Positions 1,196 to 24,442 of a stretch of 64,000 nucleotides of DNA are shown piece after piece. The DNA is from Ophelia neglecta (taxonomy: Eukaryota): the NCBI GenBank assembly GCA_965285935.1, contig OZ260662.1, forward strand, positions 98,952,001 through 99,016,000. Direction: 5' to 3'. Every line of letters starts with the position of its first letter. The stretch's first letter is position 1. Both the position numbers and the translations under genes were made by a program. The notes under the pieces are model-generated. The model saw only the letters and a list, made by a program, of their open reading frames with translations. It was not told the DNA's origin and made no database searches.

Positions 1196-2075
1196 GTGCA
1201 ACAGCTTTATAGGTTTATAGGCATGAATCCAAACCGTCTCACAAGGAAAATATTTATTCTTGATCTAAATCTCGCCAATAATTTATTCAGACCAGTTTTT
1301 GAAAGTTTACAATTAGACTATATATTGTATGATAAACAACATTGTGATTTAAGTGTAGTGAATGCAAGATTTTTTGAAATTATGGAAGACAGCTAGAAGA
1401 CAGGGGTACAAGCCATGCCTTTATCTGTGAGAAATATGTGCAATGTAATATGGCTAAACAATATAGGAGTGCCTTGGCTCAATTCAGGTCTGGTATGTTG
1501 CCTTTAAACATTGAAATTGGCAGGTATAGGAATGTTAGGGTTGAAGATCGCTTATATGAATTGTGTGATTTAAATCATGTGGAAGACGAGTTTCACTTTT
1601 TATATATTTGTCCACGTTTTGATCAGATTAGAAAACAATTTTAAGACAATGTAAGTCAATTGTACCCTGATATATATAAACCAAAATATACAAAGCCAAT
1701 TCCAAATTATTAATATTAAATTTCAACATCATTTGGCTAAGTATATATTTCTGGCTCTCTCTCTTAGAAAGCAGATTTTGTTCACTGAGTGAATCTATTT
1801 ACCTTCAATTTAATGAGCCTTCTATTTACCTTCAAAATAGTTTTATATCACTGGTAGATGCTATTTATGTGTGATTTGATTCTCTGTATTCTCTGTTCTT
1901 CGTTTGGTGTGTGCGAGCATGGGGCCGCTATATTATTGTAACATATCTGTCATTTGAAGTGACGTATAAGCTCAGGCTGGCCTTGGTCAATTTGTTCCGA
2001 TACGTAATGTATTAATTTGTTGTATCGAGTTTGACATGTCACTATAATAAATGAAAATACATACATACATACATA
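1196..2075 (+). mobile_element. 5'-truncated non-LTR retrotransposon 3' end (RTE-X-like), copy 1
   Basis: LAQFRSGMLPLNIEIGRY…EDEFHFLYICP C-terminal Zn-finger region, AATAAA and (TACA)n tail. Confidence 0.8.
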
Positions 2076-2979
2076 GCACTAGAAGCCATTAAATCAGCAG
2101 ACTGTTTGATACGCTAGGTTTAATTTTAATTACTATTGGATGGATAACAATGGATCCTACAAAACGACAGACTTACAGTAAAGGATACCTATCGCCCTTT
2201 CCATAAAACATTACATAAAATGCATGATTGACATAACAACACCTGCTTAATAGGTGCATATCAATTTTAACTTAAAAAGAAGTGCCATACTTAAATCGAA
2301 GTATAGCACTTTAATTTAGGTATTATCCCTCCTTCTACACATCATGCCTCAAACAAAGTGTCCTACCTCATAGGGCGGTTTGTACTGGACCTGCTACCAC
2401 TTCGGTTGAACCAATTACAACGCCTCGCTTGAACTAACCCATACCACTACTATTGTGCCATCCGTGAAACATGTTAAAGTAGTAATTTCTAGCCTCTTTT
2501 AATACCAAATATCTCTATTATATTTTTTACTATTAGCTTCCATGATCTGCAAGCAAATCATCATAGAATAATTGGAGACGCGGTAACTGTTAATTTGTTG
2601 TCAACAATCCCTTTGCCTAGCGAAAAATTATTTGTGTGCGACTCAATACTTGATACTTGAGAAGCTTTTATTATAACGTAATATATATTTGAGACAATGT
2701 GGTGTGTTATTTTATATCGCATGTATATTTATGCACGACAGAACGTAATGATCACATCCAAACTAGCAGTCACAAGTAATGTAGGCACATGAAGCCTTTT
2801 TTTAAGAATAATTAAATGAAACATTAATAACAAGCTGATATACATATATCACTTCTCAAACTTTTTCTTTTTAAAAAATGCAATACTTGCGAATGCTTAT
2901 AGCTTTACTCAGCGGGGGTGCTCGGGGGTAGTAGACTGAGCCAATAATCAAACTTTGGTCAGACTTTAAGTGATACACC

Positions 2980-3052
2980 ATGCCTGGAACATCTGGATCC
3001 GCGTCAGCCCTGACAAAACAAAAAATAGCGGAAACGATGGATTGGACACAAA
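2980..3052 (+). CDS. TRPM-like copy A, putative first coding exon (MPGTSGSASALTKQKIAETMDWTQ)
   Basis: ACCATG context, in-frame TGA 9 nt upstream, phase-1 donor GTTCGC (similar to the GTTCGT donor at 5669) that matches the phase of the next exon. Confidence 0.45.
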
Positions 3053-6000
3053 GTTCGCTAACTTAATTTTCAAAATAGAGATTGTAATTGCCTTATTCAG
3101 AATATCTGAATTGCCAAAAGGGTGCTGGCCAAAACAGTCACTATTGGTGATAAAGTTGCTCCTTGCTTAACATGGTTTTTATCGGAACAGCTCCTCGGGC
3201 ATTATTTTCTCACTATAATCGATTCCATTTCTAGGAAAGACTGAAGGTGTGGAGCAGACTGCCGTTAAATCACCGGGCTTCAAACAGGATCCTAAACGAG
3301 GCAAAGGTTAAGTATGGACGCTATGTAAACTACTGTAGAACATGAACCGACGGACAGGTAATAACTCCACAAGGAAATACCTGTCAGGAAAAAAAACACA
3401 GGAAAGATGAATGTAACAAAAATAGAAACGGGAAGGGCCAGGTTAACGTGGTTTATAAGCTATTGCAAAACCCCGTGCACGTTGTGCTGGTTCATATATA
3501 TCCATTAAGTTGAGCACCAACAACTTTTCCAACACCTTTGACAAGTAGGCAAGCTTGCCAACTAGCGTGCATTTTATGAAAGATTCATGATTATGTTTCC
3601 GAAGCTTCCTAGTTCTTAAAGACTGCTGGTCTAATTTGCTACTTTAAACACATGACAAGACGCCGTTTAATCAGAAGAATGCCAGGTACGCTCTGTTGAG
3701 GCTTTATATGAAAATAAAGGTATCCTACAAAACGACATCCTTCTAATCTGCAATTCCTATCACGGTATCTTTTAGTCATTTAAAAAATTGCAGAATGGAA
3801 ATGACCACACCTTGTCAGTTATGTAATGACCATTTATATATTGACCGGAACAGTAACTATTGGTGATTAAGTTGCTCCTAAGTTTACCTGGTTTTAATCG
3901 TAGCAGCTCATCCGGCATTATTTTCTCACTATAAACAATTCCATTTCTAGGAAAGACTAAAGGTGTGAAGCAGACTGTCGCTAAATCACCGGGCATCAAA
4001 GCGGAACCTGAACCAGTGGATCAACCAAGCACAGGTAACGTGTGGACGCTAATATTTTACAAGTCGATAAAATTATTCCACTTGCTTCGAGGAATCAAAT
4101 AAAGGATTTTATCAGGCAAGAAGAGAGAGAAATTAGATCAATGACACTCTTTTAGACTGCTCATAGAACTAATCCAGGCTAATGATTTGCCAAATATCCA
4201 CTCGATATTTTTATGTTTGTCACAAATGCCGGACGACTCCCAATAGGAAATAGGGGCGGTACTTCCTCGTTGGAATATAAGCTGAAGCAGCGATATCCAA
4301 ATAATTCACTAGTAAATATGTAGTAGTTCAACCAGATCACTGTGCAACAGCTTTATAGGTTTATAGGCATGAATCCAAACCGTCTCACAAGGAAAATATT
4401 TATTCTTGATCTAAATCTCGCCAATAATTTATTCAGACCAGTTTTTGAAAGTTTACAATTAGACTATATATTGTATGATAAACAACATTGTGATATAAGT
4501 GTAGTGAATGCAAGATTTTTTGAAATTATTGAAGACAGCTAGAAGACAGGGGTACAAGCCATGCCTTTATCTGTGAGAAATATGTGCAATGTAATATGGC
4601 TAAACAATATAGGAGTGCCTTGGCTCAATTCAGGTCTGGTATGTTGCCTTTAAACATTGAAATTGGCAGGTATAGGAATGTTAGGGTTGAAGATCGCTTA
4701 TATGAATTGTGTGATTTAAATCATGTGGAAGACGAGTTTCACTTTTTATATATTTGTCCACGTTTTGATCAGATTAGAAAACAATTTTAAGACAATGTAA
4801 GTCAATTGTACCCTGATATATATAAACCAAAATATACAAAGCCAATTCCAAATTATTAATATTAAATTTCAACATCATTTGGCTAAGTATATATTTCTGG
4901 CTCTCTCTCTTAGAAAGCAGATTTTGTTCACTGAGTGAATCTATTTACCTTCAATTTAATGAGCCTTCTATTTACCTTCAAAATAGTCTTATATCACTGG
5001 TAGATGCTATTTATGTGTGATTTGATTCTCTGTATTCTCTGTTCTTCGTTTGGTGTGTGCGAGCATGGGGCCGCTATATTATTGTAACATATCTGTCATT
5101 TGAAGTGACGTATAAGCTCAGGCTGGCCTTGGTCAATTTGTTCCGATACGTAATGTATTAATTTGTTGTATCGAGTTTGACATGTCACTATAATAAATGA
5201 AAATACATACATACATACATACATACATACATACACAGCACTAGAAGCCATTAAATCAGCAGACTGTTTGATACGCTAGGTTTAATTTTAATTACTATTG
5301 GATGGATAACAATGGATCCTACAAAACGACAGACTTACAGTGAAGGATACCTATCGCCCTTTCCATAAAACATTACATAAAATGCATGATTGACATAACA
5401 ACACCTGCTTAATAAGTGCATATCAATTTTAATTTTAGGAGAGCCAGATGATAAGTCCATAGCCGGACTGGAACAAAAAGTAATACAAACGGACGATCCA
5501 CCAGATAATGAAAACAGCCCAAACTTGCAACCGCGAGGAGGTCCGAGTCAGGACAAAGAGACAGAGGAGCTGGAAAAGAAAGGGAGGCCTGTTGAGGCTG
5601 AACTACTGAAGTCATCCGAATTATCTACGATCGTGACGCCAGATAAACTGTGTACTCTCTTTGAGGAGGTTCGTCCATATTGCCTGTTTTTACGTAATTT
5701 GTTTTGGAAATGTATTATATCTGCTTGTAAATATATTAAAGTATGACATTATTATGAATATTGTAAATTAGATCTTTATGGACACCAACAACTTGTCCAC
5801 ACTCTTTCTTCTACCGTTCTCAGTTAATTGAAAATAACCCAATTCCAACACATCGCAACACAATTGAGGTTCTGAAGGCGCTTGTAAAATTGAAGGACGG
5901 ACAGAAACCGGTAGGTAGAAATTGGCTGCTAAATGAGCGTCAGGTTTGACTTGTTTATGTTTAGAACTATTACAAGAGATATGCATATTATTTTAAGAAA

Positions 6001-9000
6001 TAGTCTTAATGTCTCTAACACTTGTTTTAACAGAGCAAAAAAACGCTCGACCAAATTGGGTCCATAATAGACACCAAGATAAGTAAGGAAGTATTGGACG
6101 TGTATTGTAAAGAAGGTGAGTTAGCTTGTAATAATTATGGATATAAGATTATAATCTTTGTCAATATCCTAGGACCCCACAGATAGTAAATGAACTCGCA
6201 TTGGTATTTGTGGGCCTGCAGCTGGTGGTTCTAAAAATCACTACTTTCAAAATGCCATGTATTAATAGGGGTGGGCTGACATTTTTCCACTTGATTTCCG
6301 GTAGGTTTATCATTGTTCTTTAGCTTACATTAGGAATCTCATAAACATTTGAACTGTTGATTTTCTAGTCCCCCCCCCCTCACTCCTTAAGAAGCAGCTG
6401 GCTAAAATTAAGGCTTGTTTTTGTTCGAGCGCTTGATTTAATGATCGCAAGCATTAATTGAGGCTGAGTGAATGGGTATTGCCTGCTCTACTGACATGGG
6501 CCCAACCGCATTTTTCACCTAAGATTAAGCCGGTGTGTGATTTACAATTCATTTTCAGATACTATATATCTAGACTGCGACCTGTCAATATTTAAGAGCC
6601 TTGCTTTCTTGCCGCAGTTCTGAGATAATATAGTCCTACCTATTCACCTTATTCCTCCAAAATGGCTGGTACCTGTATATAGTTTGTTTGTGTGCTACAT
6701 GTCCTTCTTAAATTGTTGTTTCAATTGCTGTAATGGAAACCTCAACGTTTTCATTTCGGATGTAGAAAGGGAAGTTCGTGCTACATTCAGACTTCGGCTT
6801 ACATCCTGCAGAAAAAGTTAAGATTTCTCGTTATTCAGGTGAATGCGACGGGTCTGCATGTCGTCTTCCAGGCTTGGAATAGGGACTTTGGGCTTCTTCA
6901 GTCTAAACGCGAGGGGCCACACTGACGAGATGACAGTGCTTGTGGTGGAAGTCCTGTTTTTGGAGTCTTTCTAGACGCCTGTTTCATTATGTTCAAAGAA
7001 ATCGCTTCACCTCGCAGAAAAAACAACACACATAGTCTGTCCCTCTCAAAAAAGGTTCTGTTTTTAATAAACAATCATCATGTTGATCAGTACTTTAGCC
7101 CTGAATAGACGATGGTACTAAAGCTAAAAGGCCGTTTGACAGCTAGCCGACATGACAACAAAGGATATCACAGCTTCCGTGTTTCCTGTCAAACAGAGGT
7201 GCTCAGCTAGGCATTTCGTAAATGGTATAAACTTTTAAAAAGGGCTTCATCGTTGAAGACAGGGGAAAATACTTCCGGAATTAGTAATTCTTCCGCTCGA
7301 ATATGACAAATTCAAACAACTTTAAAACACTTGATTACGGTTTAATATGAGCCTTCAAAATATGTAATTCCCAATTCAGGCATGCGGCGATAATGCAGTA
7401 AAACATAAACTAGTAACGACACGATCTACTCAAATAAAAGATCCAAACCACACAAGGTACACATGAAATAAAGTTTTCTTTTCAAGCTAAAACTTGCCTT
7501 TACATTAAACACATTGGTTGCAAATGTTTTATCAGGACCACAATCAGGCCGGATTATTACCCTATACATTGAGCTGTTTTGCATTGATATTGGTTATGAT
7601 TTAAATATTTGGGTTAAAAACTGCTTCTCCTGCTCTCAACTGTTAGCAGGAACGTATGACAGATGTGGAATTTCTAGGATCAGTTAATTAAATTGATTAA
7701 GTTTTTCTTTAAAAGAGTTCCATGGGGAAAGTTATATATATATAAATATGTATTAGGAGTATGAATACATTTGAAAGGTATTTTTTTGCGGTTAGTATAC
7801 TGACACTATATGTTAGGTAGTCCTCATTAAATATTAAACACAGATATGGTTGGATGATGTATCGCACAACTCACTGACACACTTTCCCACACTATTAGGA
7901 TACAACAAAGTAGTTTAGGTTAGTCCTTGGAGCCCGAGAGGCCTCTACAATTCCTTTGTCCCAATTTTAGAAACGTTCTGGTTTCTGTGTTTGTTGATTA
8001 GGATTAGTACACAAAAGGCTAGTGGAGGTAAGGCAAACTTGCAAATGACATTGACGATATCGTCATCTGTATCATTGAATTCAGCCGGTATATGCTCCAC
8101 GGATAGGGCCTTTAAGGGAATTCGACTGTAGACAGGTGTTGCTATAGTTGCTACCATTTTGTAAAAGGATGATATTAAACTTAATGTTATAAAAGACTTG
8201 CTGGTTTTTAATGACCACCGCGAATATGTCTACACCGAAATTGATATAACTTTATATGAACTTGGCCATAATACAGAAGTGGGTGTCACCTATCTTCCTC
8301 CGAACACCGACAATTCTGTATTGAATGGAAATCAACGCAATGTCCCCTCAATGCTTAAAACTGAGTCTAAATCTTACTATTAATTGGCAGACTTAAGTAT
8401 AGTTAATGACGAAGTCACCCCAAAACTTCAAACTTAATTGACCTTATGTTTAGCCACTCATTGTTACCTTCCATCCTTCTATGAACAAGCCGACAAGGAT
8501 TACTAGATTTACAGCTTCCTTGTAGTGCTTTAAACGGCATCCTAGTTCCAGATACCACTGATCATTATCCTGTTTTCATTCTCAATATTCTTGGCTCCCG
8601 TTGAATAATAAGAAATACTGAACATCCTAAACCTCTCTTAGGATGTAGTCCCTGGCTAGGACTCAATATTCATATTCCAATGTTTTTGTGAGATATATCA
8701 AACCAGTTTTACCGCCAAAAACTCATATCATGAAACTTTCAGTAAGCGAATCTTCCCACAATAATTCAAACCTGCTAAAATCACCGCAATTTTCATGAGT
8801 GAAGACCGGAAATTATTGAATAACTATAGACTTGTCGCTTTCCGCCCTTTCTCTTTATAATTATTGGAAAAAAACTAATTTATAATCGTCTTCTTCTTTT
8901 ATTAACCAAAACGACATTTTAATAGGCCTCTACTTTGTATTTAGACGAATAAGTTCTTGCTCTGACACTTTTGGCGATAGAACTGTCAATAAAACTGTGA

Positions 9001-12000
9001 AATCCTACAATTCATATTTGGACATTTACATGAACATTAAAAAAGAAGCATTTCGTATAATAGCTGATTTTCCCCGGAAACAACCGTCTAAAAATGTGTT
9101 CCATAGAACTAATATTCTCTCCCTCAGCACTCCCTATTGTTATGCTCTCCAAATATTCATCTTTAAGGGCCGCAATTGCCTGGTCCCTGAAACTATCTCT
9201 TCCCTTCAGATGCATCGTTATAGACTGCTATACCTGCACGTACGAAAAATACTATTACAACTTTCTATGTATTCCCATTAATAAAGGTGTTTCTGTCAAA
9301 AACTGCCGAATTTTCGGCATTGTTTAGCTGTTAATATGATTACGGAAACTAGATTGGGTGGCAGACGGGCGCGGGCCGTCTTAGCAGTACTAGACCGGCG
9401 TCGACAGACCAGCTCTGTGAAAAGCATCTTTGGGAAGAGAAACATGTGTTTTCATCGTTTCAAGCCATGCTTATGACTTTAGAGCGGGATTTTACTGGGG
9501 CTATGCACCTATGTGTCTCCTTTGTATTGTCCTTTTCTCTTATGTGCAAAAATCCACGGTTCAAAGTGTTCAACACGCATTGCGTGATTATACGTTAATA
9601 TCTGACTGGGGAATGACAGTAGCTCTTGCCAGGTGCCAGCGTAATGGCTCGTGACGGGTCTCGACCGGTGGAACTGTATCCTCGGCTCCGGGCGGTCATA
9701 CCAGCGATTCTTGTACAATAAAACCCATTTTAAAGTCATTACTAAATTCAAAATCAACTTAAAGGCCGTATAAGCACATCTTTGCTTCCCCACCCTTTTG
9801 TCTTTATATCTGATTTATGTCTGTATTTGAGTCATCTTAGAATTATGTACATATCTGGGATGTTGTGTATAAAATAGACTTTTTTTTTCTGAAAACGGCA
9901 ATTAAAGTTACATATGTATAATTTAATCTTATTGTACTACCTGAAGTGCTGTTTCTATGGTGTTGGTATATTCAGCTGGCAAGAACGATTCATAGTGTAA
10001 ATATGTAAATAATGTAAAACAGCCATTATTGCAATATAGTTTTCAAATTCTGAAAGGACTGTAATATGTGCATTGCTAAGGGGACAAGTTTATCCATTAA
10101 ATTGACATCAATTTGTATTAGCAATATTTTTCGTCGTCATGAGTTTTTCCACTAAACATAAACTAATTTTAGCTGAATATTTGCCTTCTATCAGAATATA
10201 AAATAGGACTAATTTCGTTTGAGCCTTATCTTTGTATACAATTTGGTAAGGATGGACCAGTGAATAATATAAAATATGCAACTGGCAATGTAAGTACAAA
10301 GTAATTAAAATATAAGTTGCTCTCCACTGCAGAATGTGTTGTCAAGAAGACAATCGTTGTGGGATTGTTTTTCAATAGAGAACGTTTGGTGCGACATTGC
10401 ATTCTACAAGTAAAGTATCCAATAGGTAAGTTTGGGTCGTCATTCGTATGGGACAGGTTTTTTCCCATTTCTTTTTTCACAACAATGTTCTTCTATTAAT
10501 GAACTTTTTAATCTGGAGGATCTCTTTAAGAATGAAATCGAGCGTGGCGTGAATCTTTGCTCTTCGCCTATGAATTGGCTATGAAAAATTTCTACTGTTT
10601 AATTTCAACAGAAGCACCGTTTGCTGTATTTCATCCATAAATCACTTAAAACGTACTACACTTTTGACATAAATTCTTTGTTTCCACCAACGTCAAGCCA
10701 CCTTGCTGTTTGCGAGCGTTTACATATTAAAGCTGTATCATTTGCTGAAAGAACTAAACCATCGTACGTTTTATGAGGAGGCCGAACAAATAGCAAGGTT
10801 AGTTAGCTCAAGAACTGACAGGAAATGATAATGTTCTTAAAAATAATTCTTCTACATTATTGGATAACCAAGCAGATAAATAAGGTTTGAGTGGAATTCG
10901 TTCAGAAAACACATACATCAAGTCCATTGCTCAGTTTTGGATTACGACGCAATCATGGGAATTCTGGTAAATAGTGTATTGAGGGATATATTCGATACAT
11001 ACGGAAAAAGCAATATCCACTTCCATACAATACAAACAAAAATAACTGAAAGTCAAAAGAAATTAACACAAATTTCGGGAAACGCAAATCACTTAGAGCA
11101 TAAGTAAAATTGTCATTCATAGTAGAAGATCATAAGTTAAAAAGTTTGCCTTATATTTTCCCATTGTACCATTCCTACTGAGGGAATATGGGACTGACTA
11201 CACAACAATTTGTATGTCCATTTCACATCTAACATTCCAGAATATTCAACTTTCATATTTGTCCCATTCGCAGCTCGATTGTCCTATTGATATTTAGAAT
11301 CCGAATTGATCTACCATAAGTGTTTCCTGCAGTAGATGAACTACATTTTATGGTTTTAAATAGGCCGTACATAATATAATTTGGTTATTATAACAATAGA
11401 ATTCAATGAAATCAAACCTCTAATAGTATATCTCAGTTGCATCTGTAACGGTATTATGTGCATAGTGTACATTGCATTAGGATTAATCAGCTTCCTGGTT
11501 TTGGATATAAAGTATTACTTCATATCTTCTTTGAAGTTGGAAAAAAATGTGTGTTTTTAAAGAGTTCTTCATTAATTTACGTGCCCAACAATAGGGTTAT
11601 CTAATTGTCTGCTAAATGAACATCATTCTCTTGAACTAATATTGTAGAAATACAGCCATAGGCCGACGTAAATTGTAGGCCTATGTTGACAAATATAGTT
11701 TATTATTCAGTTTATATACATCCTTACGGGAGTGACTTTGTCTCAAAAAAGTTTTTTCTTATTCATCCATGTATTTAAAAGGTTAAAGCAGCAGTTAGTA
11801 TGAGGTGTAATATATTCTATAGAAAATAGATAATTCCTTTTCCAGATTAAAGCAGCAGTTAGTATGAGGTGTAATATATTCTATAGAAAATAGATAATTC
11901 CTTTTCCAGATGCTACATAGAAACAACATCTGACTGGTCTCATATTGTATTTACTTACAGAAGGCTGAAAATATTAGCTGCTCTAGTGCTAGACAAATGT

Positions 12001-15000
12001 TACAGAGAAAATCCAGAACAAGCAGTGCAGCTTGTTATAAGGTAAATGGTGTAAATACGTCTTGATGATATGTGCGTTTCTGAGCATTCAATAAAGTTTC
12101 ATGTTTAAAACGTTTAAATGGTTTGAACAAATTAATTGAGTTGTTATAAAACTACGTTAATTTAAAAATTAAAAAACACATTCGTTCGCTTATACAAAAA
12201 ACACTGCCTACCCTGCCCTATTGCATGTTTTTGCAAGGGGCATTGTGTTTTTAGTTGCTTGGCGAACTTGTAGCCCGACAAGACAGGCCATTTGAATTTG
12301 TCTTAAGCCTTAAGTTAAATGATTCATATCAAGAACAACATATACCTCCCCACATTTCGGTTGGAAACACGAAACGAATATGATAGGATTTTTAAGAAGA
12401 TGCGATAATAGGTAGCTCCAGCAATTTTATGATAATCGCTAGAAATTTGATAACATAAAAACGCATTATTTACTTATAATTAGGATGAGCTTTCTTCTTT
12501 CACTGACAAATTCCGATAAAGCGGAAGTGCCCTAGCAACGGCGACCCTTAGCGAGCCAGAATTCCTTGGCAAGTATTTGCACCAGTGAATAACACGGCAA
12601 AATTGTACAGCGGTATTTTACGATTAATTATTAAATTTTAGTAACGCCGTATATGAAAGGGCGAAAAAAGCTGTATAGGCACGAATTAAACATATGATAA
12701 AAAGTATATTAGAATAGCATTAAGAGACCGGCGGACCAAAAATACTAGTATTTCAGGACAATGGATCGCTCGGGTTTAGGCTAGTACGAGTTAATGCAGT
12801 CTTATAAACCGGCATATTCAATTCTATAAATTAATTAGGTCGAGCTTGCCCGGCAAGCTTATAGATACTTTGCGCGACCCTACTGTAAAATTAATTTTCA
12901 GAACCAAAGGCTCCAACTGTGTGGGCGAAATTATAGAATACACTACTGGTATAAGTCTTAGGCAACAATGATTCTAGTACACCTCGTGTCGGCGGTCGGC
13001 CTTATTTGAAAGGGAATATTGAGAGCCTCAAATCCAAGGGCCTTTATACATTTGGCCGAACTTAAATGAAAGTCAATAAGTAAAAACCAACATACATGAT
13101 ACGTGCTAGCATGCTCGAAAAGAAGTCCCATCTCAAATTTGTCATTCGTAATGTAGAATGGGTAACCGGCTGAAACAGTGAAACTACATAGGAAATTTAC
13201 ATCATAAGGATAAATCCATTACTAGTGATATTTTAGTAAAGGTATTACCAACATATATTTGAAAAGGCCCTTTAGGCAGTTTTTGGAACTAGACATTGTA
13301 CTAGCGATATGGGCTACCTTGGAAATTATATTTATGTAGGAGGGTAATCTAAGGTAGGCATTTAAAACAACTGGCCATAGCGGTAACAGCAAAACATCCA
13401 GTATTTATCACAAAACAAACATCGTGGCTCAATCAAAGATTGAAAAAGATATTACCGGCAGATAATTTACTACCGTAGACTGGCCAAGGGTTAAAATATT
13501 ACAAAAGTAGTTGGCAAATAAAAAAAAACATTAATTCAAGTATACATATGTATGATTCAGAAATTCCTTAACAATCGCTGTTGCAATATACATAAATAAA
13601 TTATTGAAAATATGACACAACTAATGTCAAAAACTCGATCAACACACTTCTCGACTTTTTTGCCGTTGAACGCTACCTAACTTTACTACCATTCATTGTG
13701 GAAAGATGCATAAGAAAGAGAATAAGGATCAGCGCCAGGGTTGGAAAAACCCGCCTGCCCGTCGGCCCGAGGAAGATAAATATTGCATCGGGTCGATAAA
13801 CTTCTCACCTAAGTGGCCCTGCGGGCCGGTGACCTGTCAGTGACTGATTTCATTATCTTTTCATGATTTTCTACACACAAAAATGTTGGATCTTGCTTGC
13901 TGCAGTCATGCATGTTTTCTACCTCAATGGAAGGAGCGATCTGATTGGCCTAGCCGGGCATGCCCCTGATCTCGTAGCTAATAACGCTGTTTGTAGCTTC
14001 TGATCCCCGGCACTACCACGTTTTGAACCAGTTCACATCTACCGAAATTTCTCTCCTCTTCTCAACAGGTACGCAACTATCCGCTACTACCTATAATAAC
14101 TAAAGGATTGCTGCGCTGGGAACTTGTCGGCCCTGGCCTTACTTCGCGATATATTCACTCCAGCAGTAATTTTCGGCAGACATCGCCACTTCCTGGAGTA
14201 AAAGTATCACAAAAGCTACTAACTCGAACGTGTGCTCTTTTGTATTCCACAATGAACTTGTCTCGATGAAAAAAAAGAAATGAAATCCCAGCTACCCATT
14301 CATATTTTACCGTGGCTATGCACGGTTCAAGCCATGGGAGACCGTCCATCATTGTCAACAAGTACGTGACGCCAGGCACGACTCTGATGCCGCAGCTGAT
14401 TTGTCAAAATCGTAATTTTAATACTTTTCCAAAATAATAGAAGAGTAAATAAACCATTGTTTCTTTTCGATGTATTTGCCGATGCGGAATTTGTTTACAT
14501 AAAATATAAAAAAAGAAGGGGTAAATATTTTATAATCAACATTTTATTTCTGCTCGCCGTATACCAATTCTCTGTTGCTGTTGCTGTGACTGCTACACAT
14601 TTCCCCAGTGTTTGTAGCTTTTTTATGATGTTCACAAGGGTAACGGTTTTTCCGGTACCTGCCTGCCAGTCATAAATAAATTGTGTCCTGCCAAAACCAA
14701 ATCTAACGCTCTCGGCTGATCCACGTTAAGCTCCATGTTGACACACTGTATCATGGGACTCAATGTATAGAAATGATCGCACGTGTATTGCCTAATTAAA
14801 CAAACACTAATCTTTCTGCGCATGCGTACGCGTTTACGAGTTCAATCCAGGTCGACCAATGGGCAATACGCTTTTTATGTACTGCGTGGCTGCTGCCTGT
14901 GCTAAGCCTGATTCGTTACGGTTAAGCACGATCGCGACAGGCAAGCTATTTACCATTGATATTTGAAGAAAATTACTGAACGAATACCAGAAATAGCTCG

Positions 15001-18000
15001 ACATAGTCTTAAAGTGGACTAAAACACACGCAGGGTTCGAATTACTATTGATATCTATTTATTAGCAAACATTATATATTGTGTATGCAAGTATGTATAT
15101 TTGCGAGCATTTATTGTTCGTATGACATTTTATATAATGTTATACGTTATGGGTCAGAATTGAGGGGTTTTATTCAATTAACCCCTCAAAACCATTGTTT
15201 ACTTATACTTTATATGATATTTTAGGCATAGCGTATAGATTTACCCTCATGAAATTATCAATAGGATGACGGTATTGATACCGTATGAAAAGGATAAAAA
15301 AAAATACAACTCGACAATAGTAGTAATAGTAATCCAAGCAAAAGCAAAAAGTGTACCTTAATTATGATCTAATTGCCTGCCACCAAACATCAATATGTAT
15401 CTAATGAGAATGATCAAAGATAGCTTCAATCAAACAATAACATCAACAATTTTTAAACCAAACATAAACCAATACCCATTGTAATAAACCAGTATGCTCA
15501 CTGGCAACCGAAAGCCCCGCACAACCCCACCCCACCCCACCACGCACCACCCCCGGCGCAACACCAGTACATAGGTTTGTAGTATATGGTACCACATCGG
15601 ACGCAGCGCGCGGCAGGAAGGAGAAAGAGAGGAGGCAGCAGCGCACCCGGGCGCCCGCGAGCATATCTAAGCACATACACAAGGAATCTAGCATTGTTTT
15701 ACATGAGCACGTATACACAAACATTGACAAATATATATAATAGATAGAGACACGGTCATTCGTGCATAGACTCTAGGCGGCCAATAAAGAGATATGAGGC
15801 CAATAAAGAGATATGAAATTAAGAGAATACACGTCGCCATTAAAATTCACACAGACAAATTTCTATTGTGATTTGACCAATTAAATCATTTCCTGAAGTA
15901 ATGCCATAGAAGATATTTAATATTTGGTATTTAATATTTCATGATTTATTGTTGGACATCCCCCCCTCCCCCCCCCCTCAAAATATCAAATAATTGTTTC
16001 AACGTTACCGTGCTGTTGGTTAAATTACAATATATATTATAGGAGGCTAGAAGAACCCTGGTTGAACGAAGGGGAGCCGTTCTCTCTGATGACTTTTTCA
16101 CCCAAAGTTAAATGTTATGAGATTATAGGAACGTCCGCCTTTGAGCAGCGCCTGTTTCATGTATGGAAGGGTTTTTTTTTGGAAATTCCAGCTCACTGGG
16201 TGAGGCATTGTGCTCATAAAACGATGTAAAAATTCAGTTTAAAGGTAATGCGCAACATTCAAATGTACTTAACGTACGGTGGTTTTTATTTCAGATGCTG
16301 TTTGCCTTGATATTTCCCTTTCATCTCTGTTTTGCAAAATACACGAAGGATACTAAGCGAATTATGAAAGAGATCCAGACTGAATTAAACCAAGATAATG
16401 CTATTAATAGGGCATCCGGTCTAGCTCCCAATGATACCGATACTGGTGTCCGTGAAGCATGGGGAGAGGACAAACAGGACGACAAGAACGCACCAATTCC
16501 AGAAGAAAGTTTTTACCCGACTGCTAAGAATTGTTTTGGCGTCGAAATATTGGACATTACCAATTGGTCCCGTGTCACGCCTGTCACATTCTTCTACACT
16601 ACCCCGATGATCAAGTTTTACTATTACGCGGTAACTGAACTAAGGTCAATTATTTAACCGGATATCTTACTATGATGAGCTGATTAGTTTCTTTTGTAAG
16701 CTAATAAGGAGATACTATACTTATTTATATGCTGTATATCATAAGAAACTTAAAATTTGTAATGAGAGGGTAGGGTAGGTGATTATGTTACCAGTGGTTT
16801 CATAAATGACCATTAATTTTTTCCTTTTATCTTATTGCAGGTTTCCAAATTAGTGTTTCTGTTCCTGTTTAGTTTCTTCTTACTGACCAATCTAGGACCT
16901 AAAAGTGAGCAGAGCATAAATGTCATTGAGTATATAGTCTGGTTATGGGCTGGCACAACCTTCGCAGAAGAAATAAGACAGGTAGTTAAACCATCAACTT
17001 TACTGTGATATCAATTCAGTAGTCCTGGTATGGATGAATTAAAGTATTATGGATATAGGACACGCATTCACATTCAAATGCAAGGAGTATTTCTTTTGCG
17101 TTAGATTGCCAGATTTGGTTCACATATAAAAGGCTTCATATGAAAAATAACATATACACACATATCACGTATATCCCTTATTGACAGCACTTCTTAACAT
17201 GTTTCGATATTTCAATTGTTTAATGAGGTTAGGTGGCCTCCTAGCCATGTAGGGCAATTCTCGATAGGGGCTTCAACCGAGAAACATTTTGTTTTAAAAA
17301 CGGTTCAATACGCTTTTAAAATACACAAATATGCACATACCACAATGTACTTAAGGAGAGAGTCACTGGTTTGTGTGCGCGTGGAGCAACAAGCTTATGA
17401 GCACATTACATAAAGCGTTCTGTACATGTACAGAATAAAATGTATTAATCCTGTGCTATTTGCTCACAGTAATGTAACTTTGTTCAGCTTTAAAAAGACT
17501 TGTTAAGCCATCCTTGTTCATTATATAAATTTACATGCACCATAACCTGTGTAAATATTATTTCTACACGTTGTCGGACTTCTGTGTTGAAAAATCCCTA
17601 TTTCCAAATGATTACTACGCATGCATTCTTTAGCTCATATTCTTCGGTTTTCGACATGTACTTATTATATACGTATAAAGACAGACATTTTGTTTAAATA
17701 AAATGTAACTTATTAGCAAACCCCAGACAGAAACATTGTTTCAAGCATAGGATAAAAGTTGTATTTGCAACCTATATACTAGCACTGCTACAAATTGGTG
17801 TACTTCAAGCCGCAGTCCATCCAACGAATAATCAAAAACAATCGTGTATGAAACACTAGTAGCATAGATGTTATCAAACGCAATGAGTTGAGAACTAATT
17901 ACATTAACTGGTTACTGCACTGATCACAATGAAAAAGATGTTCATACTGAATTTGTGACAAGCTTCGATACGAAAGTATTAGTCAGACATACATTCCTAC

Positions 18001-21000
18001 ACTATGGACATTCTTTCCATTTAACCTATCAAGTTCCTGGTAAATAGCCAAGAAATGCTATTTCACTCTTTATGTTCACGAATATCCGTTGCTTTTCCTA
18101 TGTTTGGTGCAGTTTATTCGTGGTGCTTAAATTGCCACTCTTCATACCACATGCTTTCCATTGTGCTGACCTTGACCCCTTGCCTGTGTCGGTTTTTGAT
18201 TCTGATACCGACTGGAATTACTTGTAATAAAATAGAAACTGAGGAGCCCTTTATGTTGAAGTGTGTCCTTTAAGACAAACGGTTGACATTTTGAAACAAA
18301 CACATGGAAGGCATGAAAATTAAATCGATAAGTATGTTAAATTCACAGGACAAGAAGGCACTTGAAAATATATCCGCCATGTGTAGAAAGCACTGAATAT
18401 TCAAGCAGACTATGCTTGAATTTTTGAATTTCTGTACACCGCTACCATTAAGGATATGATTTTTTATAGGCTATATAACGCAGTTGAAGACGCAAAGCAT
18501 TGTATAATGTTGATGTTTATAAATAAACTGCATAAAATATTACATATTATCAACATGGGCAATATTTAAATTCAAATAAACACTTTTTAATACACTCGGT
18601 TTGTAAACACTCGTCTTAAAAATGCTCAGTTTTGCTTTGTAAATCGGCAAGAGGAGTGTAACTGTATTTTCCCCTTGGACAAAAACAATAACAGATAGAT
18701 TCAACAATATAAAATCCGTACTAATTTGAAGAGTAATAATAGCATTATGTAAATGAACGTTGGTTTTCCCTGTAGACACGGCGAACGGACACAACAGCTT
18801 GATTTCAAAATTGGGTGAAAAAGTGCATTTATTCTTATCCCATTAAAATGTAACATTTATCTGGATTTGTTTACATTTTCTTCGTAGGCAAGTTAAACAT
18901 GTAAACGTTTATTCACAGATATACAATAAGAAGCAAAAGTATTTCGATAGCGAATGGAATAGATTGGACCTCGCTGTGCATCTTTTAATGATATGCTGTG
19001 TCATTCTGAGGTTCGTACTTAAATCCGAAGATTTTGTTTGGGTCCGAATGTGCTATGCGTCGGCACTCTTATTGTTCTTTATACGGTTTTCGGACGTAAC
19101 TCATCCATGGAGAACAATAGGGCCAAAAGTGATCATGATACGCAAAATGGTAAGAGTAATCCTAATTTAATTTCATAATAAGTTTAAATATCATAAGTAG
19201 CACCGCCCATAGTTTGTCAGTTTATTTTAGAAATATGCATAAGCTCGGTGAAAGTTGTATATATTTGTTATTTCATTCGAATAAAATGAAGCACAGCATA
19301 TTTGGCTTTTTTTACGTTACAGCTTGTTTGGATGGTTAATTATTGACAATCATTGTGTGTAATATGATTGCAGCTGGCTGAGATGATGCGGTTTATGTTG
19401 ATCTTTTTATTGTTCATGTTTGCCTTCGGAGTAGCAATCCACTCCCTCCGTTTTCCAAACAGCCAATCTTCATGGAGTATCATTATAAGTATCCTTTATC
19501 AACCTTACTGGAATATTTTTGGAGAGTTTTTCGAGGAAAACGGTCAAAGTAAGTGTTTGAATGACTGATGCAATCTTAACATGGGCATGCAACACAGAAT
19601 CGTACTTAACAATAACATATTGAGAGAGGAAACACTCATAAATTGTTACTAAGATATCCAGTCATTAACATTTCAAAACTGTATTTGTAAATGTCCTTCA
19701 ATATTCTATCTGTAATAGTTCTGCCAGCCGGGGATACTGATATTTGTACAAACAATATGACGCTACACCAAATTAACCCTGAAGAATATCCTAGGTGTGC
19801 AAAAGCATCTTGGTTGGCCGAGGTTTTGCTAGCAATATATATATTGCTGACCCATATTCTTTTACTAAATCTGCTTATAGGAATGGTAAGGTAAGATTCC
19901 CAATTTTGGTTCCTTGCGTTAAAATTTTAAAGGTTTGTTTTTTATCCGGCAAAAATAGTTACATATTTAAGACAATTTTGCCTCCTAAGTGTCATTTCTG
20001 GATTAACAGCTGACACTAGTTATAGAAATTTTGTATGCTTAATAAATTTGCGTTTTTTATCATTTTCAGTGGGAAGATATAAATAATATAAATTAAATTA
20101 AGCCTCAGGATATAGTTTTATCTCGGTGGCGCGTCTATCCATGGGCACGTCCTGAGCATCCAGCGATAGTTAAGGCCATGGTTGTCGTAAAAGGACAATC
20201 CTAATATGTTTCTCTATTAAGTGACTGGTTAACTGGTTTTTTTCTACCTGGGACTTCTCTACCCCGTAAACTAAACTTTTACATACATCATTTTAAATTT
20301 GCGGTTTGACATAACTCACAGATGGCTGGAAAAAAACATATTTCTACTGACCGATTAGAGGAAACAATGGCAAATCTTTCTTTTCACACAATGAATTTCA
20401 CAGTTCCAACATAGGGAGTGGACCCCAGTTGGTCCATCTTTTCTACTACCTAGATATTGATTTATTTTTATTGAGATACATTCATCATGGTTTCACAAGA
20501 ACTAGAGGGTTTTGTCCAACCGTGAACTCCCTAGGTGATATTTCATTTTTATCCTGTGTGACCACTAGTTCATGTCGCTTCATGGTAAATGCCAGTTACT
20601 TCTCATTTAATTGGGATATCAATCCAATGTTGTTTAAAAAATTCACTACAGCTGGTGACAGATGTTTGTGCACCTGGAGCGCATGATTCCTGGTGATGTG
20701 GTTCCTGGTGATTTAATGGACTAGTCTCATTTAATGATGTTGCTGTTTCTGTCCGATCTCCAATCGTTTGTTATTTTATTGGCTACGATATCCGGAGTCC
20801 CGTAAATCGCCCTACAGGTTTAAATATGCTTCAAACGGCTCTACTTATGATTTCGTCTGCTTCGCGTACTTTGTAAACAAATGTATCTAATCACGCTGAA
20901 TAGATGTATCACACTATAAGTATAAACATATTAGAAATAAGCGGTAAAAACCGACATTCAATAATTTGAACTGAAAAATGCCATCATTTGAGCATAAATT

Positions 21001-22842
21001 TGATCGATTCTTTCCAGATTACTCATAGGTCCAGCACACAGTGTCTATATCTGTCTATTTCTTTCAGTTTGCAATTAATATATAAGCTGACCACTCTCTA
21101 GATAACCAATATTTCTATAATAAGGTTATCAACATATTTCCTTTGCGTTATCTGTTTGACAGCTTGCGCACATATTACAATAAACGCTTCGCTTTTCAAA
21201 GTTTTAAAACTTATAGATCTTATACTTTTGGCTTTATGGGAGTTGTCCTACAAAATAAAACCCAATAATATTTTGTTTCGTAAACCTTCTCTTTTATTAT
21301 CGCATCTTCATGAAACTGAGCAGTTTCTCCGTCTCCACAGTTCCAAGTACCAACACATGATGGAAAATGCCAAAGTTACTTGGCTGGACCATTGGTACTT
21401 GGTTAACTATGAATTCTACGACAACCCAGCTTTTCCACCTCCGTTTAACATCTTAAGCATGGCGTGGACACTCGTAAAGAAAATATGCGTATTAATCAGT
21501 ACCATCCAACCCATTACTGATAATCAAATACAGGACGGCAACATAGAAGCTAGCAAACCAAAGGACAGTCCTTTTTGTAAGTAACAACAAAACTACAAAA
21601 AAAAGCAATTAAATTTACATTTTCTCTTTAACTTACAAATCAGGTTGCTCTTGCTCTCAGCTTAGGCCGCAGCTGGTGATTTCTGATGGAGACAGACGGA
21701 TTTAATGAACTATACTTATTATTTCAATAATAATGTTGCTTTGACTGCCGGTTATCTACGCCCGTCTGGATAATCAATTTTGCCATTTAATGAAACCGAA
21801 AAACACAGATAGCCCGCGCTTTTCGTTGAACATAATTTTATGCTGTGATTTTTTCCTCTTTAAAAGGCAGCACACCGATATTAGCCTTGTGCTATACGAC
21901 GAACCTCTAGTGATGACTCGATGATATTTTGAATAAATGATTTGCCATCTTTAAATTTCCATGTTGTCTAGGTACACCATTTAAGGAAGAGACAATGCAT
22001 GTTCTTGATGACTTGGAGAAACGCATAACAAGGAAAATATTTGAAAAAAAAGATCCTTGGAGGTACATATGAGATTCTTAGCATTTTATCGTTTCTTCAT
22101 GCCTAATATAATATTCATACGCCAGAAGATTCGCGTTGACTTTGTATTGAACCCTGAAAATTGATTCCCACTGAGAGAAAGACCCATACAGGCCAGGGTT
22201 CCACGACAGGAAATGAAGGTTGAGATGGCTTTTGGGGGATGGGGTGGAGACCGTCATTTGGGCGCTTTATCTATATGAATTACAGAAAGCACGAGTGTTA
22301 ACGAATTATTTGCAGCAGCACTATTTGAATATACAAACATGAATATTATACATGTATTGATCCGGCAAGTGACGAATGGATTATTAAATATACTAAATAA
22401 TCACTCAAGTGTCATCAAGACTGAATGTGATATCAAACACAGTCGTTTACCCCACTAGCATCGTATTAATGTTTCTTGTGCATATAGGTATTTATACACT
22501 AGCGCCATCGGTTGATTACTATAAGATAACTAGAACGGGACTAAAGCATGGTACACAAGGAATGCATCTTAAAATCAATTACCATTTTATCCTAAAATAT
22601 GATTCGGATACTTACTACGGTTGTGGGGGAATTTATTAGTTTTCAATACGTTTGTGATATATATGTGATTCGCCAATTAATTGTGAATTGTCGTAACAAC
22701 TATATTCTTCTTCTATTGTTATGTCCTATTTAGATTGCCGAAAGAAACGCGCAGCAGTTTTCAACATTCGACTCTACAAAAAGAACACACGAAAACAACA
22801 ACAACCCTTGCCTACAGGTTCCATCTAGAAAGTGAGAAGTAA
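2980..22842 (+). CDS. Divergent TRPM-family (melastatin-like) cation channel gene, copy A; 18 predicted coding exons, ~849 aa
   Basis: Hand-spliced exons 2980-3052, 3235-3306, 3951-4034, 5439-5668, 5824-5910, 6034-6115, 10333-10425, 10698-10797, 11961-12041, 16043-16199, 16295-16630, 16841-16981, 18919-19149, 19374-19548, 19719-19890, 21341-21576, 21972-22062, 22734-22842. All introns are GT-AG with matching phases; total 2550 nt, no internal stop. TRPM motifs: LDKCYRENPEQAVQLVIR, FFYTTPMIKFY, EEIRQ, WNRLD, GPKVIMIRKM, QPYWNIFGE, LLNLLIGM, EFYDNPAFPPPF. Exons 1-3 are less certain. Confidence 0.88.
3235..3306 (+). CDS. TRPM-like copy A exon 2 (KTEGVEQTAVKSPGFKQDPKRGK), symmetric phase 1-1
   Basis: ttccatttctAG acceptor, GTtaag donor, 72 nt, open frame. 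Confidence 0.55.
3951..4034 (+). CDS. TRPM-like copy A exon 3 (KTKGVKQTVAKSPGIKAEPEPVDQPST), symmetric phase 1-1, paralogue of exon 2
   Basis: ttccatttctAG acceptor, GTaac donor, 84 nt, open frame. Confidence 0.55.
4342..5236 (+). mobile_element. 5'-truncated non-LTR retrotransposon 3' end (RTE-X-like), copy 2
   Basis: Duplicate of 1196-2075 with a longer (TACA)n tail. Confidence 0.8.
5439..5668 (+). CDS. TRPM-like copy A exon 4 (acidic linker then MHR3-like LSTIVTPDKLCTLFEE)
   Basis: aattttAG and GTtcgt splice sites; C-terminal part resembles TRPM LxxFLTxxRLxELY. Confidence 0.7.
5824..5910 (+). CDS. TRPM-like copy A exon 5 (LIENNPIPTHRNTIEVLKALVKLKDGQKP)
   Basis: Pyrimidine tract plus cAG, GTaggt donor, phase 0-0. 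Confidence 0.7.
6034..6115 (+). CDS. TRPM-like copy A exon 6 (SKKTLDQIGSIIDTKISKEVLDVYCKE)
   Basis: ttttaacAG and GTgagt splice sites; resembles the TRPM ITLxDIGxVIxxL segment. Confidence 0.75.
7780..8160 (-). mobile_element. Old LINE ORF1/endonuclease remnant (internally deleted paralogue of 51115-51800)
   Basis: PLKALSVEHI…TDDDIVNVICKF reading; ~310 bp missing relative to arm B. Confidence 0.55.
8170..9330 (+). mobile_element. Highly degenerate CR1/L2-type LINE
   Basis: Fragments VGVTYLPPNTD, KPTRIT, TDHYPVF, KPAKITAIF…NNYR, KEAFRII; paralogue at ~49980-51100 (-). Confidence 0.7.
10333..10425 (+). CDS. TRPM-like copy A exon 7 (ECVVKKTIVVGLFFNRERLVRHCILQVKYPI), MHR4 start
   Basis: ctgcAG and GTaagt splice sites; paralogous exon at 48737-48829. 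Confidence 0.8.
10698..10797 (+). CDS. TRPM-like copy A exon 8 (ATLLFASVYILKLYHLLKELNHRTFYEEAEQIAR)
   Basis: AG and GTtagt splice sites, phase 1-2; paralogue at 48395-48494. Confidence 0.8.
11783..11910. repeat. Perfect 64-bp tandem duplication, arm A only
   Basis: ttaaagcagcag…ttttccaga occurs twice; single copy in arm B (~46684-46750). Confidence 0.95.
11961..12041 (+). CDS. TRPM-like copy A exon 9 (RLKILAALVLDKCYRENPEQAVQLVIR)
   Basis: ttacAG and GTaaat splice sites; classic MHR4 LLDxCYxxDExxAxxLL motif. Confidence 0.9.
12320..15825. mobile_element. Arm-A-specific composite insertion in intron 9 (hAT-like ends, Pif1 fragment)
   Basis: Absent from arm B; hAT-type termini …tttgcgcgaccCTA (ends 12882) and CAGGGttggaaaaaccc (starts 13736); 19-bp tandem duplication at 15779-15816. 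Confidence 0.55.
14565..14736 (-). pseudogene. Pif1-family (SF1B) helicase N-terminal fragment, frameshifted
   Basis: MELNVDQPRALDLVLAGHNLFMTG/QAGTGKTVTLVNIIKKLQTLGKCVAVTATAT: Q motif, Walker A and motif Ia. Confidence 0.8.
16043..16199 (+). CDS. TRPM-like copy A exon 10 (RLEEPWLNE...FEQRLFHVWKGFF...HW)
   Basis: tatAG and GTgagg splice sites; end of MHR4 (QxxLxxxWxG). Confidence 0.88.
16295..16630 (+). CDS. TRPM-like copy A exon 11, pre-S1 region (…FFYTTPMIKFYYYA)
   Basis: tttcAG and GTaact splice sites; FYxAPxVKF motif. Confidence 0.9.
16841..16981 (+). CDS. TRPM-like copy A exon 12, S1-S2 (…IEYIVWLWAGTTFAEEIRQ)
   Basis: ttgcAG and GTagtt splice sites; EExRQ motif. Confidence 0.92.
18919..19149 (+). 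CDS. TRPM-like copy A exon 13, S3-S4 and S4-S5 linker (YFDSEWNRLD…IGPKVIMIRKM)
   Basis: cacAG and GTaaga splice sites; WNxxD and GPKxxMIxKM motifs. Confidence 0.92.
19374..19548 (+). CDS. TRPM-like copy A exon 14, S5 and pore (…FAFGVAIHSLRFP…YQPYWNIFGEFF)
   Basis: ttgcAG and GTaagt splice sites; PYWxxFGE pore signature. Confidence 0.93.
19719..19890 (+). CDS. TRPM-like copy A exon 15, post-pore loop and S6 (C…RC…WLAEVLLAIYILLTHILLLNLLIGMV)
   Basis: AG and GTaaga splice sites; an alternative in-phase acceptor would start at 19728; two conserved pore-loop cysteines. Confidence 0.9.
21341..21576 (+). CDS. TRPM-like copy A exon 16, TRP domain (…AKVTWLDHWYLVNYEFYDNPAFPPPFNILS…)
   Basis: ccacAG and GTaagt splice sites; ExxxxPxxPPPF motif. 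Confidence 0.9.
21972..22062 (+). CDS. TRPM-like copy A exon 17, rib-helix-like (CTPFKEETMHVLDDLEKRITRKIFEKKDPWR)
   Basis: tctAG and GTacat splice sites; paralogue at 37958-38048. Confidence 0.8.
22734..22842 (+). CDS. TRPM-like copy A putative terminal exon (LPKETRSS…FHLESEK*)
   Basis: Long pyrimidine tract plus tttAG, correct phase, TAA at 22840-22842. Confidence 0.65.
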
Positions 22843-23854
22843 AAATTTAAAAACCGTTTTCCATCAGTCACCGTTAAATGACTCATTCTTGGTTTATGGT
22901 CCAAATGGGTAAGGCCTATTAAAAAATGGATAATTTCCAAGTTGTTTCATGACAGTAGAAAACTACAAAGAAAATTTTACAAGGCAATAGTTTAGTATTC
23001 CGCATCGCTTGGGTCTCCCAATTTTTCACGTATGCATTTGTTTATGCTTCATGTGTCCACCTGGTTTCGAATTGCGAATATAGATATATTTAATGGTTTA
23101 AGTATAAGTGTGACTGTGTGTAGTTTATTCCGCTGTCACTAAGCGTACATAACAGAGAGTTTGGCAACTAATTTGTATAAATAGATCCTACTCGTGCTAT
23201 TAATTACAGTGTTTTAAATTTAATTAATATATCCTACCTTTCTTTATAAATCTAAGTATTGTTACATGATTTTATAATAATACCCTTCGATTCGATTTTA
23301 ATATTGTTTTGAGGTCACATATTTACAAATAATACATACTATATCACCAAATAAGGTCAATTTATGATGACAAATCAACATATTCATGGGTAAATAGTAG
23401 AAGAATGCAATATAAATAGTTGTTATGATGTATTAATGACATGTCACACATGTCAAAGGTTGCTCTTTCTTTGTTTAATTGCTGATTGGCTTGAAATAAT
23501 TACGTGCTACTAATTTTTTATTCGTGTTTATACCAATTATTTGAGATTGTATGTATAGCACATTTCCCTTTATACATTGAAAAGCTCCCATTGAGCTCAT
23601 TTAATAACGATGAAAGGAGCAATTTATCAATGCCAATATTATCATAATGCTTTTAAAGAGTGCATATAAATTGGTCCAATTGTCTTGCGAGTGTTTATGT
23701 TAAATACTTTAGCCTGCACAGATTCTAGAGATATGTTTTATTCATCTGGGATGGTACTTGGCTGATTATTATCTGTAAATGTGCTAAGGGCGTCCAGTGG
23801 GGCCGGGCGGATGAGAACAAATTCTATTGAATAAATCTTTCAGAGTATTTTTAT

Positions 23855-24190
23855 TTCATGTCACATCCGTTAGCAAGGCGTTAATGTTTACCAAGGGTAT
23901 TGATAAAGACATTATAAGGATAGAATGTTTGTCAAAAAAAAAATAACCCAAACTAAAACAGACGATGTCAAGCTGTTCTGTTTATTTGGTTAAATGTCTG
24001 ATTGCTTGACTGGATGTCACTGTCACATCCGTTACAACAGATTCGAAACCTTTATAATCATAGCAAAGTTTAAAAATAGTTCACCTACATATTACTCATG
24101 ATCTACTAGAGGTCTCTAGGAGTGAAATTACTGATGGCTCGTGTTGTTATATAGGGGAACATGATGATGATTGTGTCACAACCGTTTTTA
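23855..24190. repeat. Repeated TGTCACA(T/A)CCGTT motif, probable non-autonomous DNA transposon
   Basis: Motif near 23859, 24021 and 24174; mirrored in arm B (35797-36135). Confidence 0.4.
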
Positions 24191-24442
24191 TTTATACTGT
24201 TTTCAGAAATTGATGGGGGTTAATAGTATGTATGGGTATAAAATCATTATTTGAACATACATATTATATTTACATGAGAGTTTAATCAATGGTAGTGCCT
24301 ATAATGTTAGCCCAATTCATAAGGCAAATTCCGTTAAAATAGTTTATATTGATCACACAATTAGTTGGATTTGCTAGGCGCGGCCAAAATTTAATAATTT
24401 CATTGAACATGTTGGGATAAAACCAAAGCCTAACAACCTTAA

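Follow-up and report, generated by a model that had tools for sequence, protein, structure and literature searches.

An intact, fast-evolving TRPM-beta-like gene of Ophelia neglecta that may have lost its bottom cytosolic tier

According to the accessible text of PMC13143021, the TRPM-beta-like clade of channels, in which Table S1 of that work includes Pecten XP_033755580 under this name, ancestrally lost the NUDT9-H enzyme domain. In abalone, as far as the available part of PMC12980990 describes the proteins, all TRPMs carry SLOG and only two contain a Nudix domain. Because beta-like channels dispensed with NUDT9-H, yet TRPM and TRPS proteins keep their melastatin homology regions (MHRs), an absent enzyme domain would be ordinary in this family but an absent SLOG would not. 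Here, we describe a TRPM-type gene on the forward strand of a 64,000-nt stretch of DNA from Ophelia neglecta (assembly GCA_965285935.1, contig OZ260662.1, positions 98,952,001 to 99,016,000), hereafter the window, within which all positions are numbered. The reading that we slightly favor is that of a functional, fast-evolving TRPM-beta-like gene that would have lost its bottom cytosolic tier, namely SLOG/MHR1-2, the first half of MHR3, and the pole coiled coil, keeping an MHR3/MHR4/rib tier in decayed form and a membrane tier that is conserved.

The exon chain, built by hand and by script on the window DNA, runs from the ATG at 2980 to the TAA at 22842 with GT-AG introns and consistent phases, yielding a single open reading frame (ORF) with zero internal stops; the gene, being intact and uninterrupted, is real. 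The core model consists of 16 exons and 797 aa, and adding candidate mini-exons, all of which keep that status, gives 17 exons and 814 aa, 18 exons and 824-831 aa, or 19 exons and 841-848 aa. An earlier note on this DNA, made from the sequence alone, had proposed 18 phase-consistent exons and ~849 aa; its intact chain stands, whereas its exact count does not, although the extended models (814-848 aa) come near it. Junctions from exon 5 onward are backed by homology, and exon 1 by phase alone. Three DNA sequencing runs from one sample contain window DNA, and the search for such runs listed no RNA run. None of the 12 indels listed (of 16 in total) in the three DNA runs fell within a core exon. 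An Rfam scan returned no matches.

A profile of 21 relatives aligned residues 169-706 of the model at 415 bits, spanning the six-transmembrane (TM) TRPM-type domain and the TRP helix, and the exon-wise matches to solved structures were TRPMs, with TRPM3 the best for exon 12 alone. Exon 11, searched against 1.84 billion representative proteins, gave 188 matches at no more than 55% identity; the named long matches were "TRPM-like 2" proteins of molluscs, nemerteans, brachiopods, and hemichordates, ~30% identical to the model, and all 16 long matches that were entered in a tree fell on the beta-like side. A word-indexed protein search with the same exon yielded nothing significant among 51 candidates and is uninformative, since relatives sharing a 10-residue word exist, and Pfam, applied to 17 single-exon translations, produced just sub-threshold Ion_trans matches in exons 11 and 13. 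The phylogeny against TRPM proposed in the earlier note as a check (a tree of 62 TM regions, without TRPS) placed the model with 100/100 support on the NUDT9-H-less, beta-like side, apart from 18 beta sequences and on a long branch (1.39). This side includes the cluster of Pecten XP_033755580 and returned 0 rows for PF25969/PF00293. Neither NUDT9-H nor the MHR1/2 ADP-ribose site, the marks of a TRPM-beta chanzyme, is present in the model, and the tree places it outside beta. On this sequence evidence, the gene is identified as a fast-evolving TRPM-beta-like channel. The enzyme domain is indeed missing, as the earlier note had observed, but this is hardly a noteworthy trait, being normal for the TRPM-beta-like clade in the accessible text of PMC13143021.

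Conservation along the model is strikingly uneven. Scored as fractions of the median over 58 relatives, the S1-S6 segments reach 0.68-0.93, while four segments of MHR3, MHR4, and the rib stand at 4-16% of the family score (MHR3b, 0.04; MHR4a, 0.05; MHR4b, 0.16; rib, 0.09); MHR4d (0.33) and the TRP helix (0.46, the lowest TRP-helix score of the set) are intermediate. Full-length relatives with equally long membrane branches score 64-98 in MHR3b, and only the SLOG-less protein P0156 scores lower than the model. Because the cytosolic segments decayed while the membrane segments were kept, a real loss of the lower tier is favored; SLOG, MHR3, and the pole belong to one structural tier.

Evidence on selection comes from an inverted paralogue lying tail-to-tail with the gene (Table 1). 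The earlier note had overlooked this copy as well as the direct repeat at the 5' end of the window. This copy has stops in exons 10 and 12, a CAG-to-CAC change at the exon-11 acceptor, and two 12-nt deletions, and further differs by an exon 14 that is 33 nt longer and a last exon shifted by 4 nt. Its homology to the gene extends as far as intron 4, to the point corresponding to 7780; neither in the 12 kb beyond this end nor elsewhere in the window were exons 1-4 of the paralogue found. Over 593 shared codons, the copies differ with a dN of 0.071 and a dS of 0.108, next to an intron divergence of 0.097. When a neutral lineage was simulated at half that divergence, a stop-free frame survived in 1.6% of the runs, and stops, splice sites, and frame all remained intact in 0 of 5000. 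Because neutral runs fail to stay intact, the simulations show copy 1, the gene described here, to have been under purifying selection since the duplication. The dN/dS ratio is 0.65, which is high; the earlier note had named a value near 1, together with absent expression, as speaking against its own reading. Between the copies, exons 5-15 contain three indels, all in frame, compared with 19 of 77 in introns, and copy 2 was probably also selected for a time. A 52-nt unit repeated in tandem (12.8 copies, 52212-52873) adjoins the 5' end of the paralogous block, and ~3.4 kb of intron 7 (12400-15800), missing from the paralogue, consists of high-copy insertions with very high depth in all three DNA runs. 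A contig of DNA run X2 carries four substitutions within 13 nt of exon 4 (6064-6076), possibly representing the paralogue's exon 4 outside the window, and contigs with other exon-11 changes fit neither copy and hint at a further allele or copy.

At the C terminus, the first acceptable phase-2 acceptor after exon 15, at 22734 (1 of 16 sites listed up to 35600), opens a 35-aa tail, and poly(A)-type hexamers follow the stop codon at 22918 and 23830. This confirms the tail described in the earlier note, ending in a stop and devoid of a coiled coil: the last exon has no coiled-coil pattern, the tail gives no pole match (an equal or better score occurs in 761 of 1000 shuffles), and its heptad score of 2.0 is below those of all 54 relatives scored (minimum, 3.0; median, 5.25), four of the 58 having been omitted for too little aligned sequence. 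The tails of the two copies differ by 21 mismatches and a frameshift, and both copies end within ~35 residues. Given the in-frame exonic indels in both copies, both were probably selected with a 3' end inside the duplicated block; the block ends 1.5 kb past the stop codon, which fits a gene terminating there. The ORF ends 131 aa past the TRP-box tryptophan and leaves no room for NUDT9-H in the model. The rib-like helix reported after the TRP domain is identified by its position and visually; its score is not significant, being reached in 215 of 1000 shuffles, and the scan, the same as that used for the pole, placed another stretch above the expected one. Overall, loss of the pole coiled coil is likely and fairly well supported. 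A pole-like stretch at 31991 (score 14.9, 1 of 199 frames) was rejected because it is located beyond the duplicated block and has no phase-2 acceptor rich in pyrimidines, and an acceptor at 24689 opening a 50-aa frame, likewise outside the block, was not favored.

At the N terminus, homology to MHR3 is already present in exon 2, rather than starting in exon 4 as had been thought: residues 61-100 align in register to the second half of MHR3 (3 of 1000 shuffles), and residues 133-158 match its end (0 of 1000). The ~130 aa initially regarded as K/E/P/D-rich and nonhomologous are indeed enriched (48% K/E/P/D in aa 25-76), but only approximately aa 25-60 are free of homology. The first half of MHR3, with the AWNR repeat, was not found in the model; exon 1 was rejected as a degenerate AWNR exon for want of significance, 125 of 1000 shuffles doing as well, as was an alternative frame at 2973, with no phase-1 donor among those listed and no Pfam hit. 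The best scores for SLOG motifs in 1-5440 were 3.5-8.7, compared with minima of 30-63 in relatives, and the window yielded no SLOG, AWNR-repeat, pole, or NUDIX sequence in scans that are insensitive for a gene so divergent, the tiled hidden Markov model search for SLOG/pole exons having recovered just 2 of 7 positive-control tiles and the separate motif scan having failed on its rib control. Thus, the intact minimal TRPM of the earlier note survives as an intact, constrained, C-terminally shortened gene in whose window no SLOG/MHR1-2 is detected, but loss of SLOG is beyond what the window can show, because the upstream duplicated unit is cut by its edge. In 55 relatives, 28-43 aa separate the AWNR tryptophan from the ALVQ helix, and exon 2 alone places ~42 aa of acidic stretch before the ALVQ position; this acidic extension plausibly exceeds the normal MHR3 linker.

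Short forms comparable to the model exist elsewhere, SLOG being absent in 13 of the 120 relatives listed. The oyster proteins P0203/P0270 have a leader whose homologue is found in the full-length paralogue P0279 and which is joined directly to the same MHR3 exon as in the model. The unannotated ORF P0288, on a 1453-nt contig, spans this junction and continues through the rest of MHR3, as expected of spliced cDNA; another contig ORF, P0271, spans it up to the position matching the end of model exon 2, and in P0289, also from oyster, the leader runs into a truncated remnant of the next exon. The SLOG-less oyster form is sister to the full-length oyster paralogue (100/100) and represents a recent independent derivative, and the contig junction suggests that SLOG loss recurs. 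The 774-aa SLOG-less RefSeq protein P0156 (XP_070565935), a beta-like sequence on a very long branch whose MHR3 and rib have decayed, begins in MHR3 at the profile position at which the oyster forms do; its sister grouping with the model (83/69) was not accepted, since it joins two long branches. With one intact gene and one dead copy here, and SLOG-less forms in oyster and hemichordate entries, the lineage-specific subfamily suggested in the earlier note is too strong a claim. No description of a natural SLOG-less invertebrate TRPM was found in the literature searched, which largely excluded subscription journals. The exon-2 extension, the decay of MHR3, MHR4, and the rib, the one-tier link with the pole, and the oyster precedent together make SLOG loss plausible and, though unproven, the somewhat likelier outcome.

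Several considerations weigh against this loss, and part of them would suit a gene of ordinary length. In that case, which we consider possible but clearly less probable, SLOG and first MHR3 exons of a divergent TRPM-beta-like gene would lie upstream of the window beyond an intronic tandem array, exon 1 would be a chance ATG, and the protein would have the N-terminal ligand-binding clamshell of other beta-like channels, with or without a pole. Exons further upstream are conceivable because the DNA beyond the duplicated unit is outside the window. Positions 1-2273 repeat 3147-5435 in direct orientation at 98.5% identity, and, most simply, the other copy of the exon-1-bearing unit lies just before the window start; just 873 nt of non-duplicated DNA is visible upstream of the gene. 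A 175-nt repeat element occurs twice per unit of this duplication (696-870, 3126-3300, 3842-4016). The very weak exon-1 donor, AAA|gttcgc, scores -3.2, which 32% of the 1057 GT sites in 1-20000 surpass, and contigs over 2418-3297, holding exon 1, have depths of 84, 35, and 51-74 in the three DNA runs, as against ~14-20, 5-10, and 12-20 for long gene-body contigs, an approximately fourfold excess that is a rough guide and gives no copy number. False haplotype duplication is disfavored as the source of the repeat by this excess. That ATG 2980 is the true start is therefore doubtful. Moreover, an acceptor precedes exon 2, whose homologue is an internal exon, SLOG is present in 107 of the 120 relatives, 5'-truncated gene models are frequent artefacts, and most of the 13 SLOG-less models look like fragments, at least one being a split annotation (P0226 with the adjacent P0274). 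Every TRPM and TRPS examined in the available part of PMC13143021 has MHR1/2, MHR3, and MHR4. A pole or coiled coil persists in the short forms from oyster and hemichordate, MHR3d (0.41) and MHR4c (0.66) of the model are less decayed, the full-length relative P0093 is likewise weak in MHR3b (18), a divergent pole exon could have escaped scans that missed most of their positive controls, splicing is predicted from DNA alone, and the tree contains no alpha, gamma, or TRPS sequences. An ordinary-length gene, however, would hardly account for MHR3b, MHR4a, and MHR4b lying at or below nearly all 58 relatives when the membrane core does not; with an AWNR exon placed at its customary boundary, the inferred spacing would be ~66 aa, compared with the maximum of 43; and the pole, the partner in the same tier, appears to be lost.

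Alternatively, the gene might be a recently inactivated or barely constrained partial duplicate whose 5' exons or promoter disappeared as the tandem unit formed, recently given that its copies are 98.5% alike, with stops yet to come. The ratio of 0.65 is high, the family profile has no significant preference for copy-1 residues (40 vs 32, p=0.41), the cytosolic segments are strongly decayed and the TRP helix scores lowest, and the sister copy is already dead. In the accessible text of PMC9805079, TRPM8 without its first MHRs fails to reach the surface and without its coiled coil does not gate, so that a protein lacking these parts might be nonfunctional. We nevertheless regard inactivation as unlikely: no stop, frameshift, or splice-site loss has accrued over ~5% lineage divergence, an outcome absent from the neutral runs; the residues of the Ca2+ site, filter, and pore-cysteine pair are kept; and the indels listed from the DNA runs spare the core exons.

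Under the favored reading, a functional gene without its bottom tier, the membrane tier would carry the activity. The S2-S3 acidic site is kept (E457, Q460, N474, and D477), with N474 and D477 aligned to N869 and D872 of hsTRPM2 and E457/Q460 to E843/Q846, which we take to be their Ca2+-site partners. The selectivity filter is FGE, with an acidic third residue, and the pore cysteine pair (C605/C622) is conserved. The TRPM8 residues matching N474 and D477 coordinate Ca2+, according to the available part of PMC9805079, and an acidic third filter residue is linked to Ca2+ permeation, for example in nvTRPM2 (E1037; PMC8145809). The product is likely a Ca2+-permeable, Ca2+-modulated, ADP-ribose-independent channel subunit. 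It would start with a short acidic leader that runs straight into the second MHR3 exon, although which exon comes first is uncertain, and would contribute to a Ca2+-permeable non-selective cation pore. ADP-ribose would not gate it, both binding sites being absent from the model; the membrane tier would instead be where control is exerted, with Ca2+ at the S2-S3 site and lipid as the likeliest regulators. Because deletion of these regions kills TRPM8, a homomeric surface channel would be about as likely as a subunit that co-assembles with a full-length beta-like paralogue or a protein that stays inside the cell. Nothing in the analysis points to the sensory role that had been suggested.

Table 1. 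Gene model, duplications, and candidate exons, in window coordinates
Feature	Position	Strand	Remarks
Direct duplication	1-5435	.	Inferred unit ~3.16 kb (2274-5435) holding putative exon 1; upstream copy cut by window edge
Exon 1, putative	2980-3052	+	ATG, 24 codons; doubtful: very weak donor, inside multi-copy DNA
Exon 2	5439-5668	+	Acidic low-complexity stretch fused to decayed MHR3 second half
Exon 3	5824-5910	+	MHR3
Exon 4	6034-6115	+	End of MHR3
Candidate optional exon	10195-10245	+	In frame, 51 nt
Exon 5	10333-10425	+	MHR4 start
Exon 6	10698-10797	+	MHR4
Exon 7	11961-12041	+	MHR4
Exon 8	16043-16199	+	MHR4 end
Exon 9	16295-16630	+	Pre-S1 and S1 start
Exon 10	16841-16981	+	S1-S2, E457 and Q460
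Candidate S2-S3 mini-exons	18347-18918	+	18347-18378, 18776-18814, alternative acceptor 18888
Exon 11	18919-19149	+	S3-S4, S4-S5 linker, N474 and D477
Exon 12	19374-19548	+	S5, pore helix, FGE filter
Exon 13	19719-19890	+	Pore loop with C605/C622, S6
Exon 14	21341-21576	+	Divergent TRP helix and loop after it
Exon 15	21972-22062	+	Rib-like helix by position; statistically not significant
Exon 16	22734-22842	+	35-aa tail and stop; first acceptable phase-2 acceptor past exon 15
Inverted paralogue	35614-51798	-	Of 7780-24363, 80-90% identical, exons 5-16 present; pseudogene

Elsewhere in the window, two elements with interrupted endonuclease- and reverse-transcriptase-like ORFs, at 32607-35502 (-) and 56780-61949 (+), are presumably, by their motifs, long interspersed nuclear element (LINE)-like, and shorter LINE-like remnants occur at 1181-1641, 4327-4787, 8165-8380, and 54856-55638. 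A fragment at 25756-26116 (-) resembles what we take to be a Harbinger-type transposase-derived nuclease.

If the bottom tier is truly gone, the membrane and MHR4 tiers would suffice for the assembly and gating of a TRPM. As far as their available parts go, PMC13143021 treats the four melastatin regions as invariant, and PMC9805079 makes the N-terminal regions and the coiled coil essential for trafficking and gating; a selected natural gene without both would offer a test of the role of the bottom tier and of the minimal TRPM. A natural six-TM TRPM conducting without the entire bottom tier would, tentatively, represent the extreme of a recurrent, undescribed beta-like route, taken in oyster and hemichordate too, in which a leader exon is joined to the second MHR3 exon. 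Should SLOG exons exist upstream, what is left is a short-tailed, divergent beta-like paralogue.

Among described channels, the best BLAST and tree neighbors belong to the TRPM-beta-like clade (Morini et al. 2026, in the accessible text of PMC13143021; Pecten XP_033755580, Tubulanus XP_074649507), with ~30% identity overall and at most 42% in the TM region. Like the model, they have no NUDT9-H and possess an FGE/YGE filter, the S2-S3 acidic site, and the pore cysteine pair. Unlike the model, they contain a pole helix as well as SLOG and a complete MHR3, with ~450-790 aa ahead of model residue 85; the model also differs by an S2-S3 linker 8 aa shorter (core model), a TRP box reading WLDHW instead of WRFYR, and decayed MHR3/4 and rib. 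The SLOG-less oyster proteins XP_034335684/A0A8W8JN38 (P0270/P0203) and P0156, whose hemichordate origin is deduced from its accession range, have a low-complexity leader on the same second MHR3 exon within 774-867 aa, and P0156 shares the decay of MHR3b and rib, but all retain a pole or coiled coil. TRPM-beta (Nematostella, human TRPM2), along with TRPM4/5/8, provides the best solved-structure matches for exons 10, 11, and 14, and forms a separate clade in the tree; neither ADP-ribose site, in MHR1/2 or in NUDT9-H, occurs in the model, nor does the coiled coil. Short vertebrate TRPM8 isoforms (PMC5045378) and engineered deletions (PMC9805079) are N-terminally shortened as well. Reportedly, these are mostly retained in the endoplasmic reticulum or inactive, and they derive from a full-length gene, whereas the model is proposed to be a separate gene with all six TM segments.

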